Shown here piece after piece: positions 3,686 to 13,723 of a DNA stretch of 13,723 nucleotides. Each line of letters opens with the position of its first letter. Position 1 is the stretch's first letter. This DNA comes from Promethearchaeota archaeon (GTDB taxonomy: Archaea > Asgardarchaeota > Lokiarchaeia > Sigyniarchaeales > SOKP01), in NCBI GenBank assembly GCA_048940925.1, contig JBHLOC010000071.1, positions 1-13,723 on the forward strand, given 5' to 3'. Position numbers and translations under genes: made by a program. The notes beneath the pieces are model-generated. The model was not told the DNA's origin. It searched no databases and saw nothing but the letters and a program-made list of their open reading frames with translations.

Positions 3686-3982
3686 TTAATGATGAAAATC
3701 CTCCCAAATGTCTAAAAAATTTTTAAAACCACGTGCCTTTATATTTTCTATCTTATATCTAAATATTTTAATACGTCCAAATCTTTTTTCTTGGATCATA
3801 TTTATTTTTTTTAGATAATTTAGATGTTTGACAACATTTGAGTAGTTTAATCTTGTATTATTGATGATCAATGAAAGAGTCAATTCCTTATTTCTAGCCA
3901 AGGTTTTTAAGATCTTTACTCTAGCTTTTGAACCGAGAACATTTTCGATTAAATTTTCTTTTTCTGAAACTTCTACGTTCAA
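3686..3982 (-). CDS. ArsR-like winged-helix DNA-binding protein
   Basis: Pattern LGSKARVKILKTL...LTLSLI...LNYSNVVKHLNYL...IQEKRFGRIKIFR. Its TTG start overlaps the cdc6 TGA stop (TTGA). Confidence 0.85.
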   Translation of the reverse strand: MNVEVSEKENLIENVLGSKARVKILKTLARNKELTLSLIINNTRLNYSNVVKHLNYLKKINMIQEKRFGRIKIFRYKIENIKARGFKNFLDIWEDFHH

Positions 3983-5193
3983 ATTTTCAAACCTTTAGAA
4001 TATAATAATTCTGTAATAATTTTTTCTAAATTTGATAGGTTGATTTCAGGTACTTGAATTAAGGCTTTTCTTCCTTTGATTTTCTCACTTAGAATTTTAG
4101 TATATATTATATTGTCTCTTTTAAATTCCTGAAGATAATTCCACAATTGAGAATATGATTTTGGATTTAATCCTAAGTTTTCACATATTACATGATAACT
4201 TTTTAAAATTTTAAGAAATGATATTTCAGTTAAATCACTAATTTTTAATGCCTTAATTATAGCATATAAAAAAACTAATTTTTCCGATGATATATACTTC
4301 AATACATCTAATGTTGAGAAAGGTACTAATTCTTGACTTCCAAGTCGAACACATTCAGCTGATATATATTTTAAATTTTTGCTTTCAGCTATTTTAGTAG
4401 CTTTCCATAAATTATTCAATCCATACCTTACATCGCCATTACTATATGTTGATTCAGAAATCATTTCAATCAATTCATTAGATATAACATTTTTTTTCAA
4501 ACTTATATCTGCTCTATATTTCAAAATATCAAATATTTGTTGTTTAGAATAATTATTGAACTTTATAATATTTCTTTGTAATGTACTCAATGTACTATTG
4601 TCTAAATGACTTATACACGTAATGTCTCTTACAATTCCAATTATAGAAATTCTTTGCTGAGAATCAAGGGAATCATCATAAATTCGGGTTAATAAATAAA
4701 TCAAATCTTCACCTTTATTGATAAGATAATTCAACTCATCTAATACAATCAATAAATGTAAATTCTGTATATTTAGTAGTTCTAATAATATTTCTAATAA
4801 ATCTTGAGGAGAATAACCTCTTTTAGGAAAGTCATTATTAATCATTCTAATTATTTTGATTAATACTTTGTAGCTAGTTCTTTCTTTTCTACAATTAATA
4901 TGAACATATTCAATAGCTATATTTCTTTCATTTGATACCTTTTTAAGCAAATCTCCGAAATACTTTACGGTTACTGTTTTACCTATTCCAATTTTACCTG
5001 TTATTAGAATCTTTCTTGAGATTGAATTTGGATTTGTGATTACAGTTAAAAAAAGCTGCGATAATAAAGATAATTCTTTATCTCGGTGTGGAAGTTTATC
5101 TGGAACATAGTTTATATCAAGTTTTCTCTCATCTTGAAACAATGTTGGCTTTTTTAGTAAATCTTCAAAATACTCCATATTTAATAAAATCAC
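3979..5193 (-). CDS. cdc6: Orc1/Cdc6 replication initiator (AAA+ ATPase plus C-terminal winged helix)
   Basis: YVPDKLPHRDKE N-terminal motif, Walker A GKIGIGKT, YVHINC, Walker B LIVLDE, sensor-2 GDVR, C-terminal wH with GRKALI. The true start may be the ATG at 5178. Confidence 0.95.
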   Translation of the reverse strand: MILLNMEYFEDLLKKPTLFQDERKLDINYVPDKLPHRDKELSLLSQLFLTVITNPNSISRKILITGKIGIGKTVTVKYFGDLLKKVSNERNIAIEYVHINCRKERTSYKVLIKIIRMINNDFPKRGYSPQDLLEILLELLNIQNLHLLIVLDELNYLINKGEDLIYLLTRIYDDSLDSQQRISIIGIVRDITCISHLDNSTLSTLQRNIIKFNNYSKQQIFDILKYRADISLKKNVISNELIEMISESTYSNGDVRYGLNNLWKATKIAESKNLKYISAECVRLGSQELVPFSTLDVLKYISSEKLVFLYAIIKALKISDLTEISFLKILKSYHVICENLGLNPKSYSQLWNYLQEFKRDNIIYTKILSEKIKGRKALIQVPEINLSNLEKIITELLYSKGLKI

Positions 5194-6659: not shown

Positions 6660-6854
6660 ATGGGAAAGGTTAGAACAGTTTTAATTAAAAATGTTTCAAA
6701 AGAATTAATAGATAAGTATCCTAGTGTGTTTACTACTGATTTTGAGAAAAATAAAAAATTATTAGATAAATATTCAGAAATAGATTCAAAACATTTAAGA
6801 AATAGAATTTCAGGATATATTGTAAATTTATTAAAAATTAAAAGTAAAGAATAA
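6660..6854 (+). CDS. rps17e: 30S ribosomal protein eS17
   Basis: MGKVRT...F TTDFEKNK...SKHLRNRISGY signature; GAGG site upstream. Confidence 0.97.
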   Translation: MGKVRTVLIKNVSKELIDKYPSVFTTDFEKNKKLLDKYSEIDSKHLRNRISGYIVNLLKIKSKE

Positions 6855-7660: not shown

Positions 7661-8734
7661 TCAAGAATTTAAAGTGTTTAAAAAAAGAGGTTTAAGGAGA
7701 TTTACATAATGATCACGTATTGAATATTCTGCGATGTTGGTTACTTCAGAGATAATTTTTTGGGTTAGAATAGCTTTTTGTGAATTTCTTTTAGCTAATA
7801 ACTTATCTGCTAAATATATAATTGCACCTGTCAGAATAAATGGATTTCTCCCTCCACGTAAACTGACAGGTAATGCTTTTAGTATTTTACGACATTCTAA
7901 TATTAACTTATTTTGGAATTCTCTTTTTGACCAAAAGACACCTTTTTTCTTTAACCTTTCTACTAAATCTTTGTGATTTACTACTTGATTAATTAGTCTT
8001 ATTAGATAATCTTCACTTTTATGAGGTAAAGAGTGATTTTTTATAAAGTGTTTATATTTTACTCCATCTCTTAAGATTAATCTAGGATTAACTCTATGAC
8101 CGTAGTTTTGAAAAGCTTTAGAAATTTCATTGATAGTAATTGGTGCATTATGATATTCCTTTCTTACAGCATAAAATATACAAAAAGCAATTAATGAGAT
8201 ATTATTAATTACTTTAGATTCACTCTTAATTATTTTTTTATAATAATATGCCGCGTTATTTCTGATATTTTTATTTAAATTTAGGTATAATGAGATTTTA
8301 TTTAAAATGTTAAAGATTCTATACTCCGTTTCATGATTTTTAATCCTTAAAAATTGATCATAATTTTTTTTGAGTCTTCTAAACAATTTTTGTTCATTTG
8401 GGGGTAAAAGCTTTCCTGTTTTATCCTTTAAAAATATAGAATTTTCATAATCAATAAATGAACCTAATCCGCCTATAAAATCTGTCCTTGTCCCCAAAGA
8501 AACATACTGTTTACTTAAATTATTTAGTTTATCATTTTGATTGAAAATAAAAGATGATTCTCTAAAAAATTCATTAACTATTAACCCACATCTATTGCAA
8601 ATTCTTTCAAAGCTATTGATAATTATATTTCCACCACATTCAGGGCATACTTCAAAGGCATTATTATTATCTTTTTTTTCTTTTTGATTAATAGATATCA
8701 CTAAATTCAGGGAATTTAAGACAAATAAATTCAC
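7661..8734 (-). CDS. tfb: Divergent transcription initiation factor IIB (TFB) paralog
   Basis: Zn ribbon CPECGG...CNRCG, two cyclin-fold repeats, GRNP..TGAIIY, and a C-terminal TQKIISEVTNIAEYSIR HTH. Start uncertain (GTG at 8734 or 8701). Confidence 0.85.
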   Translation of the reverse strand: MNLFVLNSLNLVISINQKEKKDNNNAFEVCPECGGNIIINSFERICNRCGLIVNEFFRESSFIFNQNDKLNNLSKQYVSLGTRTDFIGGLGSFIDYENSIFLKDKTGKLLPPNEQKLFRRLKKNYDQFLRIKNHETEYRIFNILNKISLYLNLNKNIRNNAAYYYKKIIKSESKVINNISLIAFCIFYAVRKEYHNAPITINEISKAFQNYGHRVNPRLILRDGVKYKHFIKNHSLPHKSEDYLIRLINQVVNHKDLVERLKKKGVFWSKREFQNKLILECRKILKALPVSLRGGRNPFILTGAIIYLADKLLAKRNSQKAILTQKIISEVTNIAEYSIRDHYVNLLKPLFLNTLNS

Positions 8735-9370: not shown

Positions 9371-10063
9371 GTGGATTTCACTATGGTTCGATTTACAGCA
9401 GATCATAAAGTTTATATTAAGATTCTTTATTGGGGTATGGCAGGTTCAGGAAAGACTACAATTGTAGATACTCTCTACAGATATACAAAAGAGAATGATA
9501 AAGATATAGCCCCTACGGGTAATCTCACTAAAATTTCTATGGCGAGTGGATCAACATTATATTTTGATAGAGGTATCTTTAGATCCACAAAACAACAAAG
9601 TAGAGGAAAAGTTTTTTATCATGTATACACTGTTGCAGGTCAACGGAGATTTTCTCCTTTAAGAAAGAAAATCTTTAAGGGAACAGATGGAGTTATTTTT
9701 ACTGTTGATTCACAAACTCATTTCTTTGAAGATAATATCGAATCTTTAAAAGAATTGAAGAATATTACAAGAGGAAAATTAATTAAGGAAATTCCTCTCA
9801 TTGTTATGCTCAATAAACAAGATCTTACAGAGGTGATAGGTGAAGAAGATTTTAAGCAAGTCTTAAAAGATGAAAAACTTTGGTATGAACCAGATGCTAA
9901 ATTATATTTTTGGAATCCAATAATATATAAAACTTGTGCTCTCTATGAAAAAAGAAAGGATGTATATCGCAGTTTTTCTGAATGTGCAAGAAGAACAGGA
10001 TTATATCAAATATATGGTGATGGAGAAGCTCCAGAAGAATTTAAAGAGTTCCATGATTTTTAA
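9371..10063 (+). CDS. Small Ras-superfamily GTPase, MglA-like (paralog 1)
   Basis: G1 GMAGSGKTT, G2 STLYFD, G3 YTVAGQ (MglA type, no Asp), DGVIFTVDSQ, G4 NKQD, G5 TCA. The start may be the ATG at 9383. Confidence 0.9.
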   Translation: MDFTMVRFTADHKVYIKILYWGMAGSGKTTIVDTLYRYTKENDKDIAPTGNLTKISMASGSTLYFDRGIFRSTKQQSRGKVFYHVYTVAGQRRFSPLRKKIFKGTDGVIFTVDSQTHFFEDNIESLKELKNITRGKLIKEIPLIVMLNKQDLTEVIGEEDFKQVLKDEKLWYEPDAKLYFWNPIIYKTCALYEKRKDVYRSFSECARRTGLYQIYGDGEAPEEFKEFHDF

Positions 10064-10338: not shown

Positions 10339-10539
10339 ATGTGGATTAAAACGGGTTTATATAATAATATAAAGGATAATTTACCGAAGCAGTTTTCTAT
10401 TTTTCAATTAATGAGTATTCTAGGAATTGAAGCATTGGAAGTGAGAAAGGTAAGAAATTTATTAAAACAATTTTACTTACAGGGTTATGTAAAAAGAATA
10501 TCAAAAAATATGTATAAAAAAGTTGAAATTAAAGATTAA
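10339..10539 (+). CDS. Small winged-helix-like protein
   Basis: 66 aa with FSIFQLMSILG...VRNLLKQFYLQGYVKRISKNMY, a typical wHTH recognition helix plus wing. Confidence 0.7.
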   Translation: MWIKTGLYNNIKDNLPKQFSIFQLMSILGIEALEVRKVRNLLKQFYLQGYVKRISKNMYKKVEIKD

Positions 10540-10549
10540 TAATTAAAGA

Positions 10550-11161
10550 CTAATTATTAATACTTAAATTAATAACTACTTGAGGAAATATATAATTAAT
10601 TAACTGACTAAATGAATCCAATAGTCCTTTTCCATTTATAGCAACAGTTCTTTTTAATGTAAGATTTTTATATTTATTATAATCAATTAGGGATAAAAAT
10701 TCTGATTCACTTATTTTTTTGGTATCCCTTAGATCATACTTATTTAATGAAACTACAATGGGAATATTATATATCTCCATTCCGAATAACATTTTCAATT
10801 CATTCCATGATCTTAAATTATGTTCCAAAAATTTATTTTGAGAATCAACGACGAAAATTATACCATCTACTCCCTTTAGAGTAGCTGGACGAGTGCCTGC
10901 ATAAAAATCCTGACCTGTAGCAGAATATACTAAAAACTTTAAATCCCACTTAGTCCCGCTAAATTGTAATACTCCAAAATCAAAAAAGAGTGTTCTTCCA
11001 ACAGTACTATCAATTGATTTTAATGAGTTTTCTTTTTTGAAAAAAGAAAAAAGATATTTTACAGAAGTTGTTTTTCCTGACATTGCAGGACCGTAATATA
11101 CAATTTTTACTTGTAATGTTTTTTTCTCAAAATCAAATATCATACCTAATTCTAACCCCAT
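10550..11161 (-). CDS. mglA: MglA-family small GTPase (paralog 2)
   Basis: KIVYYGPAMSGKTT, GRTLFFDF, YSATGQDFY, LKGVDGIIFVVDSQ, NKYD and TVAINGKG closely parallel Myxococcus MglA motifs. The start is probably the ATG at 11143. Confidence 0.9.
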   Translation of the reverse strand: MGLELGMIFDFEKKTLQVKIVYYGPAMSGKTTSVKYLFSFFKKENSLKSIDSTVGRTLFFDFGVLQFSGTKWDLKFLVYSATGQDFYAGTRPATLKGVDGIIFVVDSQNKFLEHNLRSWNELKMLFGMEIYNIPIVVSLNKYDLRDTKKISESEFLSLIDYNKYKNLTLKRTVAINGKGLLDSFSQLINYIFPQVVINLSINN

Positions 11162-12048
11162 AATGAAACTATTTTATCACCAATAAAAGTTTTCTTACCA
11201 TCTTCAATCAAATCAGAAAAATTTTCACCCCATTCTTTAAATATAAATGATATAATACGTTCAATAGGCGCTTCCTCATAATCAATAGTTTCTAAAAGAG
11301 TTTTACTTCCTATTTTAGCTTGCATTTCGATATTTTTTAATAAATTCAACCTTGATAAGATGAAAAAAGCACGTTTTGAACCAGAATAGAAATTTTGAAT
11401 CTCTCTTTTAAAAATATTTTTCTTTAACTCAATTTTTTCTATTCCAAAATCTAATAATGTTTCTATTAAATCTTTATCAAGGTTATTCAATTTTGTCTTA
11501 TCATTTAAAACTCTTTTCATTTTTATAATAGATTTTTCTGTATCTTGAGAAATCTTTTTAAATATATTTTGTTCTAATGGTAAATCCAGTACTTTCGTAT
11601 TTATTTTTTCAAGATTTACTAAAAACCTATTGGAAGAAAGAGTTATGTATAGTACTTCTTTAACTTTATCTCTTATCTGACTTCTTATTGCAAAAAAATC
11701 TTCTTTATTAGGAGGAATAATTATTCCCATTAGCCAAGACTCAAATTTGTTAAATTGACTTAATGCTTTGAATGCAACATTACAAGGGCACCTAATGTGT
11801 GCTCTTTGAGAGTTATAGTCAACATTTTCATTAAAAATTAAACTTTCATACTCCCTATTAGAAATGAAATCAGTATTAAAGATGTATTCTTTTCTAAAAT
11901 GTATAAGTTCAGATAAATCAATTAATAAGTTATCAATTTTATCTGAATCATCACCAAAAACGATAATGGGAATCCTATCTAAAAGGCAATATAGAATTAA
12001 GGAAGAATAGTTTCTTTTGAATTTATCTAAAATTTCGAAAAATTTCAT
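11152..12048 (-). CDS. Hypothetical protein with a DENN-core-like (cDENN/dDENN) pattern
   Basis: FFEILDKF..SSLILYCLLDRIPIIVFGDDSDKIDNLLIDLSELI, then SWLMGI, VLYITL and a helical C-terminus. GGTGA SD at 12057-12053. The ORF is secure; the fold call is by eye. Confidence 0.55.
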   Translation of the reverse strand: MKFFEILDKFKRNYSSLILYCLLDRIPIIVFGDDSDKIDNLLIDLSELIHFRKEYIFNTDFISNREYESLIFNENVDYNSQRAHIRCPCNVAFKALSQFNKFESWLMGIIIPPNKEDFFAIRSQIRDKVKEVLYITLSSNRFLVNLEKINTKVLDLPLEQNIFKKISQDTEKSIIKMKRVLNDKTKLNNLDKDLIETLLDFGIEKIELKKNIFKREIQNFYSGSKRAFFILSRLNLLKNIEMQAKIGSKTLLETIDYEEAPIERIISFIFKEWGENFSDLIEDGKKTFIGDKIVSLWG

Positions 12049-12060
12049 ATTTTCACCATG

Positions 12061-13098
12061 CTATTTAATAATTAATTCTCCTAACATCCTTTTAACATCA
12101 AATGTCCTATGTTCTTGAATATCAGACGCTTCTTTAATAAGTGTGCTAACTTTATTCGTAAATTTGGGAAGGATTAGTCTTATTAAACCTAATTTTTGTC
12201 TCATTTTTCCAATAATGGTATTGAATACAGCTCTTCCTAATCCCTCGATAAATTGAAAGGTATTATCACAATCTAATAGTATTCTTTCAGCATGCATTTT
12301 TTTTAACATCCATGCACATCTATTAGCTGTTTGAAAAAGAGAATAACTCATTGCTGATATCTTATCTAACGTCTCTGAACTCATTTCAACCTTTTTTAAT
12401 AATTTTGATGCGATAAATCCCCCTTCAATAGTTATAAAAGCATACTTTAAATCGGGAATTGTTAAAGAGATATTATTCAAAACTTTTTTTAATTCTAAAG
12501 ATATTGCTCTTGAGAAGCTTAATGAAAAGGGAGAGATTTTTAGATTGAATTCTTCATTTTCTTTAAGATTAAATCCTTCGATAATGCTTTGAATTTTCTG
12601 ACTATTAAATTGTATTAAGGGTGGTTTAAAGGACTCTCCAGATGTTATTAGACTAGTTTTAATTTTCCTTAAACATTCATTAGTTTGTAAAAATATTCCC
12701 CCTAAATTGATATTAGGTTGTGCTGTAATTGCGATAAAGAATTCATGATTTTCGTCTAAAATATTTTGTAATTCTAAAATCTTATTTAATGACTTATGGA
12801 CAGGATTATTTAAAGGAGCAATTAAAATTTTTGCTTTTTTCCCTTCTATCAAGATATATTTTAGATCATTAGGATGTAAATGAATACCAACATTAAAAAT
12901 TGCACTGGTAGCAGAACTTACATTAAAAATTTCATCTTTTGAAAACCAAACTCCAGTCGATTGAATTGGATTCCCGTCTCTTTGTGTTAAAACTGCATTC
13001 TCTACACCTTTTATCTGCTTTATTTGGTCTAAGTGGATTCCTATTTTCTCATGGAGGTTCATTTTATAACAAATATTCCTTTTATGAAATGATATCAT
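12061..13098 (-). CDS. Tandem Roadblock/LC7 (MglB-like) domain protein
   Basis: Domain 1: GVENAVLTQRDGNPI...ILIEGKKAKILIAPL...NLGGIF. Domain 2: AFITIEGGFIAS...ISAMSYSL...KLGLIRL. The start is probably the ATG at 13062. Confidence 0.88.
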   Translation of the reverse strand: MISFHKRNICYKMNLHEKIGIHLDQIKQIKGVENAVLTQRDGNPIQSTGVWFSKDEIFNVSSATSAIFNVGIHLHPNDLKYILIEGKKAKILIAPLNNPVHKSLNKILELQNILDENHEFFIAITAQPNINLGGIFLQTNECLRKIKTSLITSGESFKPPLIQFNSQKIQSIIEGFNLKENEEFNLKISPFSLSFSRAISLELKKVLNNISLTIPDLKYAFITIEGGFIASKLLKKVEMSSETLDKISAMSYSLFQTANRCAWMLKKMHAERILLDCDNTFQFIEGLGRAVFNTIIGKMRQKLGLIRLILPKFTNKVSTLIKEASDIQEHRTFDVKRMLGELIIK

Positions 13099-13165
13099 TT
13101 AATTTTAAAATAGACTTTTAAACTACGAAATTTTAACAAATTTTATTCAGTTTTATGCGAGAAAA

Positions 13166-13181
13166 CACAAAAATTTATAAT
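13166..13181 (+). promoter_or_regulatory. Putative BRE/TATA promoter of the rRNA transcript
   Basis: An A-rich CACAAAAA directly precedes TTTATAAT (13174-13181), about 30 nt before a GC-richer structured leader. Confidence 0.55.
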
Positions 13182-13204
13182 ATATTTTTCCTATATTATA
13201 TAAT

Positions 13205-13723
<519 letters not shown>

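Follow-up and report, generated by a model that had tools for sequence, protein, structure and literature searches.

The window analysed here is a stretch of 13,723 nucleotides (nt) from a Promethearchaeota archaeon (assembly GCA_048940925.1, contig JBHLOC010000071.1). It is an archaeal sequence with a G+C content of about 23%. Its minus strand carries three co-oriented, tightly linked genes, encoding a tandem Roadblock/LC7 protein (P0001), a protein with a predicted DENN fold (P0002) and a small GTPase of the MglA family (P0003), which together are the subject of this report (Table 1). These open reading frames (ORFs) are real genes rather than chance ORFs, since the middle protein has 387 relatives in the database and 119 of the 123 loci examined carry the trio with this gene order. 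On the coding strand, the junction between the Roadblock and DENN genes reads catggtgaaaat, a 12-nt gap in which a Shine-Dalgarno-like GGTGA (12057-12053) is followed 4 nt further on by the ATG of the DENN-like gene. The second junction depends on which start is taken for the GTPase gene: its annotated ATG (11161) gives a 10-nt overlap with the upstream stop, and a start at M7 (ATG 11143), as in most orthologues, leaves an 8-nt gap. An earlier note on this DNA had described the same packing, with the GGTGA in the first gap and an abutting or overlapping second junction, and both the coordinates and the sequence agree with it. Because the homologues measure 333 and 197 amino acids (aa), the true starts are probably M13 (13062) for the Roadblock gene and M7 for the GTPase gene, giving products of these lengths. 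Two T6 runs, 29-47 nt past the GTPase stop codon, plausibly act as the archaeal oligo-T transcription stop of the operon.

Table 1. Operon genes, junction elements and neighbouring features in the window (columns: feature; positions; strand; basis).
Tandem Roadblock/LC7 protein P0001, 345 aa	12061..13098	-	ORF call
Intergenic gap, 12 nt, with Shine-Dalgarno-like motif	12049..12060	-	read from sequence
Longin-less protein with predicted DENN fold P0002, 298 aa	11152..12048	-	ORF call
MglA-family small GTPase P0003, 203 aa	10550..11161	-	ORF call
Two T6 runs (10521-10516 and 10508-10503)	10503..10521	-	read from sequence
Second MglA-family GTPase, 230 aa, convergent with the operon	9371..10063	+	PDB phmmer MglA E 1.2e-19; Pfam Arf 2.1e-17
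Archaeal 16S rRNA gene, 5' end	13406..13723	+	Rfam RF01959, 245.6 bits
Orc1/Cdc6	3979-5193	-	
Ribosomal protein S17e	6660-6854	+	
TFIIB-repeat protein	7661-8734	-	

The AlphaFold2 (AF2) model of P0002 comprises an alpha/beta domain (residues ~1-150), an all-helical domain (~157-275) and a conserved tail of low confidence (285-298). The first domain has the organisation of a cDENN, i.e. a three-layer alpha/beta sandwich with a sheet of about five strands (28-32, 53-57, 83-87, 105-110 and 132-137, plus 142-147), helices between them and no nucleotide-binding motifs; a Walker A sequence (GxxxxGK[ST]) is absent from the protein. Right after it, helices at 157-184, 192-198, 202-239, 248-254 and 262-273 form a dDENN. 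In an exhaustive VIA-align comparison with this model, the best structural matches were DENN domains: the folliculin C-terminal domain (6nzd_H and 3v42_B) with 13.0 (185-186 residues aligned, root-mean-square deviation 3.4, model residues 1-275), SMCR8 (6lt0_B), C9orf72 (7o2w_A) and DENND10 (8p0v_M), each with 11.2, and DENND1A (6ekk_A) with 10.1. The earlier note had called this protein DENN-core-like and had staked its proposal on that fold, which the cDENN and dDENN of the model and the matches to FLCN, SMCR8 and C9orf72 bear out. Secretion-type ATPases were also retrieved (2oap_1 and 4ihq_A, with 9.4 and 9.0), and a Foldseek search of the PDB with the model gave nothing at E <= 1e-3, with DENND1B appearing at E 6.6e-3 amid ATPases. 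The protein might therefore be read as a degenerate, inactivated P-loop/RecA-like ATPase of the secretion type with a helical tail, converged on the DENN shape. The resemblance itself is expected, because cDENN has been described as a minimal P-loop-like topology in which the nucleotide-binding residues are absent. The ATPase alignments end near residue 223, whereas those to DENN structures extend to about 275, and we regard a degenerate ATPase as very improbable.

No Pfam or NCBIfam family was assigned to P0002, and the curated cut-off of the DENN-superfamily hidden Markov models (HMMs) of Pfam was not reached. When 42 relatives were submitted to Pfam, Folliculin_C was detected in two (best E 4.8e-4) and DENN in one (0.093), and ten divergent relatives gave no DENN-type match in Pfam. 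A profile of the DENN family retrieved only spurious ferritin matches (E about 1e-3) from the PDB sequences. PF02141 and PF16692 found nothing in the window's genome, a result that is uninformative since control genomes were equally silent. In a language-model search, all named look-alike clusters belonged to the DENN superfamily (C9orf72-like, Folliculin_C/SMCR8_C, SPA, Avl9, DENND11 and Afi1), which is a lead and not an HMM match. The 120 database relatives listed are nearly all 298 aa long; they carry hypothetical annotations and are 66-88% identical. When 1.8 billion cluster representatives were searched exhaustively with HMMER, the family was met in only 85 clusters, and it is therefore small and lineage-restricted.

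Based on the model, P0002 is a longin-less DENN-fold protein and not a member of the full DENN module, because it has cDENN and dDENN and no N-terminal longin (uDENN); strand 1 of cDENN begins about 25 residues into the chain. Proteins of 523-2000 aa yielded no scoring fused form, a weak piece of evidence, and medium-length relatives (323-434 aa) had no Pfam domain, with no Roadblock signal in the two tested (P0144 and P0189). The tail at 285-298 (window 11155-11196, minus strand) carries the motif G-D-x-I-x-S-L-W-G, with 49% mean identity and a predicted local distance difference test (pLDDT) of 41-57; it may serve as a short docking peptide. The end of its coding sequence overlaps the alternative GTPase start.

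In P0001, Pfam recognises one Roadblock/LC7 domain (21-98). The AF2 model (pLDDT 78.6) contains two complete modules with the alpha-beta-beta-alpha-beta-beta-beta-alpha order of the Roadblock fold, at ~15-153 and ~197-327, in line with the tandem arrangement proposed earlier. The C-terminal module is MglB-like and is followed by a short helix (335-344) of low model confidence. Both diverged domains thus lie in one chain, in contrast to the single-domain homodimer of MglB, and the tandem presumably folds as an intramolecular pseudo-dimer. Conservation is unequal, with 60% mean identity and nine invariant columns in the N-terminal core and 37% and one column in the C-terminal domain, which fits a fixed asymmetric platform. 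Within the N-terminal Roadblock, some 20 residues (99-119; window 12742-12804, minus strand) form a helical insert that is found only in the window's order and is missing from distant families (alignment columns 101-120).

A G-x-P before strand 2 is a general Roadblock feature, and D41-G42-x-P44 ahead of this strand is invariant in P0001 orthologues. In the longin-type complexes with GTPase-activating protein (GAP) activity, to which FLCN-FNIP, GATOR1 and C9orf72-SMCR8 belong, an arginine finger has been described beside such a Gly-Pro motif before strand 2 (PMC12290439). The candidate in P0001 is R40, the sole arginine of the beta1-beta2 loop, which is not invariant: orthologues can have K, V or Q instead. 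An FLCN-type arginine finger in the Roadblock protein is not supported by the alignment, because R40 is not conserved.

According to PDB phmmer, the closest proteins to P0003 are the MglA GTPases of Thermus thermophilus (3t12_A, E 1.5e-26) and Myxococcus xanthus (3e-26), with the next families (Arl6, Ran, Arf1 and Rab) at about 5e-6 (best 4.7e-6), so that the MglA-like call made earlier stands. The motifs comprise a P-loop (G24-T31), Arg56 in switch I (GRTLFFDF), G3 (S80-A-T-G-Q84) and G4 (N140-K-Y-D143). R56, within G-R-T-L-F-F-D-F, aligns with the arginine of MglA R-T-L-F-F-D-F, the intrinsic finger of that family. R56, T82, G83, Q84, N140, K141 and D143 are invariant across 23 orthologues. 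In G3, S-A-T-G-Q replaces DxxGQ and aligns with T-V-P-G-Q of MglA, the first position being S or T in all orthologues. The [T/S]xxGQ form of G3 is assigned to group-1 MglA. A Roadblock gene also lies upstream in the operon, as is typical of the family, with the DENN gene between the two. By its sequence, P0003 clearly belongs to the MglA family and is not Rab-like.

A profile search detected the DENN gene in 167 of 301 sampled Asgard genomes, usually with one match per genome. Some families have it almost throughout (57/68, 74/76 and 15/19), and others yielded no match (0/28, 0/11 and 0/11). The close relatives of the window genes come from metagenome-assembled genomes (MAGs) labelled Promethearchaeota or Promethearchaeia (Lokiarchaeia-type). 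All 20 loci fetched from nine other, distant families keep the order Roadblock-DENN-GTPase, at identities to the window proteins of 24-36% (DENN), 25-49% (Roadblock) and 40-51% (GTPase). The conservation of gene order, on which the earlier note had also staked its proposal, thus extends beyond the window's own family. The operon also occurs on contigs of MAGs whose labels read 'Patescibacteria group bacterium' and 'Candidatus Nanopelagicaceae bacterium' (L071, JANBVM010000002.1; L106 and L110, DATKTW010000036.1 and DATKTW010000131.1), where the DENN protein is 59-71% identical to that of the window; these are most likely mis-binned Asgard contigs.

This distribution also bears on whether the three genes are merely neighbours that share a transcript for historical reasons, with no action on one another. 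Such a view could draw on Tran et al., according to whom the GTPase genes of MK-D1 do not, as a rule, share operons with Roadblock or longin genes. However, the order and tight spacing persist in almost every locus examined, down to 24-30% protein identity, and the families concerned interact elsewhere (MglB on MglA, DENN on small GTPases), leaving an accidental association scarcely credible.

In four loci of Promethearchaeota genomes (L025, L091, L092 and L094), the DENN gene (about 61-63% identity) is separated from its usual partners and has a pyruvate-formate-lyase-like gene beside it. The lone gene is divergent from an ORF of 229-230 aa, and in L094 it lies upstream of the pyruvate-formate-lyase-like gene. 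One of these genomes (G138) has its Roadblock and GTPase genes directly adjacent elsewhere (L124, G138:C76), with no DENN gene between them. Judged by gene order, this arrangement is consistent with a core of the mglB-mglA type that would normally hold the DENN gene as an insertion.

The same three classes of protein have been reported together before. In the relevant text of Liu et al. (bioRxiv 10.1101/2020.10.19.343400; Nature 2021), an operon 'conserved in most Asgard archaea' is described in which a LAMTOR1-like member of the Roadblock superfamily is encoded together with a small GTPase and a DENN protein; the GTPase is placed outside the Rag family and a folliculin-like module with guanine nucleotide exchange factor (GEF) activity is proposed. 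The window operon is very probably the one predicted there, because one such conserved operon is distributed over 167 of the 301 genomes. The arrangement has thus very probably been published already as a prediction and is not new, and the novelty implied by the earlier note was overstated. Both accounts place the same classes in one putative operon, but the GTPase is termed Rab-like in that text and falls into the MglA family here; a tandem Roadblock and a longin-less DENN do not appear in its relevant passages. No later paper characterising the Roadblock-DENN-GTPase operon, biochemically or otherwise, was found in our literature search. For MK-D1, Tran et al. (2024) refer to MglA-like GTPases without touching on this operon. 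According to Zhang et al. (2012), the longins of DENN modules derive from MglB-like GAPs of MglA-like GTPases, a scenario that the operon fits.

Compared with the bacterial MglA-MglB systems of M. xanthus and T. thermophilus, in which MglB is a single-domain homodimer, two diverged Roadblocks are fused here, the Roadblock and GTPase genes are separated by one for a DENN protein, and the host is an archaeon that is not known to possess gliding machinery. The eukaryotic longin-DENN regulators (FLCN-FNIP, C9orf72-SMCR8 and DENND1-Rab35) differ in other respects. In every eukaryotic DENN module a longin precedes cDENN and dDENN, whereas the DENN polypeptide of the operon has none and the longin-related Roadblock is encoded upstream. 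There is one DENN protein instead of a DENN-DENN heterodimer, and its putative client is of the MglA type and not a Rab, Rag or Arf. As opposed to the Roadblock dimers of Ragulator (LAMTOR2-5) and of the Rag C-terminal domains, the Roadblocks form a single fused chain, with neither a Rag-type GTPase nor a LAMTOR1-like wrapping subunit.

We read the operon, with a probability of roughly 0.7, as the Lokiarchaeia-type version of a three-gene operon conserved in Asgard archaea, in which the prokaryotic mglB-mglA cassette has been elaborated into a three-part regulatory system. The tandem Roadblock pseudo-dimer would replace the MglB homodimer as a platform for one GTPase molecule and, in the manner of MglB, would promote GTP hydrolysis by bringing the Arg and Gln of the GTPase itself into position, with the nearly invariant N-terminal half doing the contact work. 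The DENN protein would dock on this platform or on the GTPase, and Roadblock and DENN together would amount to a split version of the eukaryotic longin-DENN module. In this model, DENN would either catalyse nucleotide exchange, following the example of DENND1-Rab35, or provide a regulatory scaffold, like the DENN halves of FLCN-FNIP and C9orf72-SMCR8. Judging from sequence and synteny, the three proteins likely act on one another, and we lean towards a GAP or platform function for the Roadblock protein. A role of the DENN protein as scaffold, regulator or effector is possible, and its action as a GEF is proposed only tentatively.

Another explanation starts from the mglB-mglA pair. The operon would essentially be this pair, and the middle protein would be an effector or output of the GTP-bound GTPase, or a localisation factor, its DENN fold providing only a binding surface. 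The genome in which Roadblock and GTPase genes stand together without DENN and the four loci with DENN alone can be told in this way, as can the catalytic Arg and Gln that MglA-type GTPases bring themselves. A separate GEF may be unnecessary, because MglB of M. xanthus has been reported with both GAP and GEF activities, and RomRX, formerly held to be the GEF of MglA, has recently been reinterpreted as an effector according to PMC13408092. Yet the solved DENN modules among the structural matches are GTPase regulators or parts of regulator complexes, and the very strong conservation of gene order fits a stoichiometric complex; we consider a pure effector unlikely. A bolder version of the three-part regulatory model would see the operon as a living pre-fusion longin-DENN module, in which a Roadblock pseudo-dimer and DENN/dDENN on an MglA-type GTPase supply both GAP and GEF control, ancestral to FLCN-FNIP, C9orf72-SMCR8 and DENND; this version is doubtful.

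Upstream, a 16S ribosomal RNA (rRNA) gene is divergent from the Roadblock gene across about 310-345 bp (spacer 13099-13405 in the window). The back-to-back pairing is kept in the window's family and in a sister family from the same taxonomic order (f1 and f2) and is absent in the five distant families compared (loci L043, L044, L047, L068, L098, L105, L107, L114, L053, L054 and L056 for the whole comparison). The 16S neighbour is probably the reason for the breaks that many assemblies show 0.9-2 kb upstream of the DENN gene. In Lokiarchaeia-type genomes, this position could hint at a switch linked to growth or ribosome output.

The second MglA-family GTPase of the window (9371-10063) is a neighbour of the operon in almost every locus from the window's own family and not in distant families. 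It lacks the intrinsic arginine, with S-T-L-Y-F-D where MglA and P0003 have R-T-L-F-F-D, and could, going by this substitution, be a second client that needs an external arginine. The window's genome has two further close P0003 paralogues (G000:C41:119215-119772, L125, and G000:C40:7669-8223, L126; E 9e-72 and 3.5e-70), one of which also has a Ras-family GTPase gene upstream. The ORFs of 133 and 147 aa that precede these paralogues gave no Pfam match and no similarity to Roadblock. Despite the extra GTPases, the genome contains only one tandem Roadblock and one DENN gene. Of the other genes in the window, those for Orc1/Cdc6, S17e and the TFIIB-repeat protein are ordinary informational genes without an evident operon link, and an ArsR-type regulator and a prepilin peptidase are also encoded.

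Membrane traffic and nutrient signalling in eukaryotes depend on Rab, Rag and Arf GTPases under the control of DENN and longin/Roadblock proteins, and where these proteins came from is an open question in eukaryogenesis. The refinements that the present analysis adds to the published prediction are modest: an MglA-type GTPase, a tandem asymmetric Roadblock, a longin-less DENN, the occasional unlinking of the DENN gene and the 16S rRNA gene as a conserved divergent neighbour. The operon nevertheless brings an MglB-like platform, a DENN core and an MglA-type GTPase into one small expressible cassette, and ancestral DENN-domain activity is therefore directly testable. If the pre-fusion version were true, the cassette would be a direct archaeal ancestor of the FLCN-FNIP, C9orf72-SMCR8 and DENND regulators. 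For the question of how DENN-type GTPase regulation arose, the operon makes an attractive test case.

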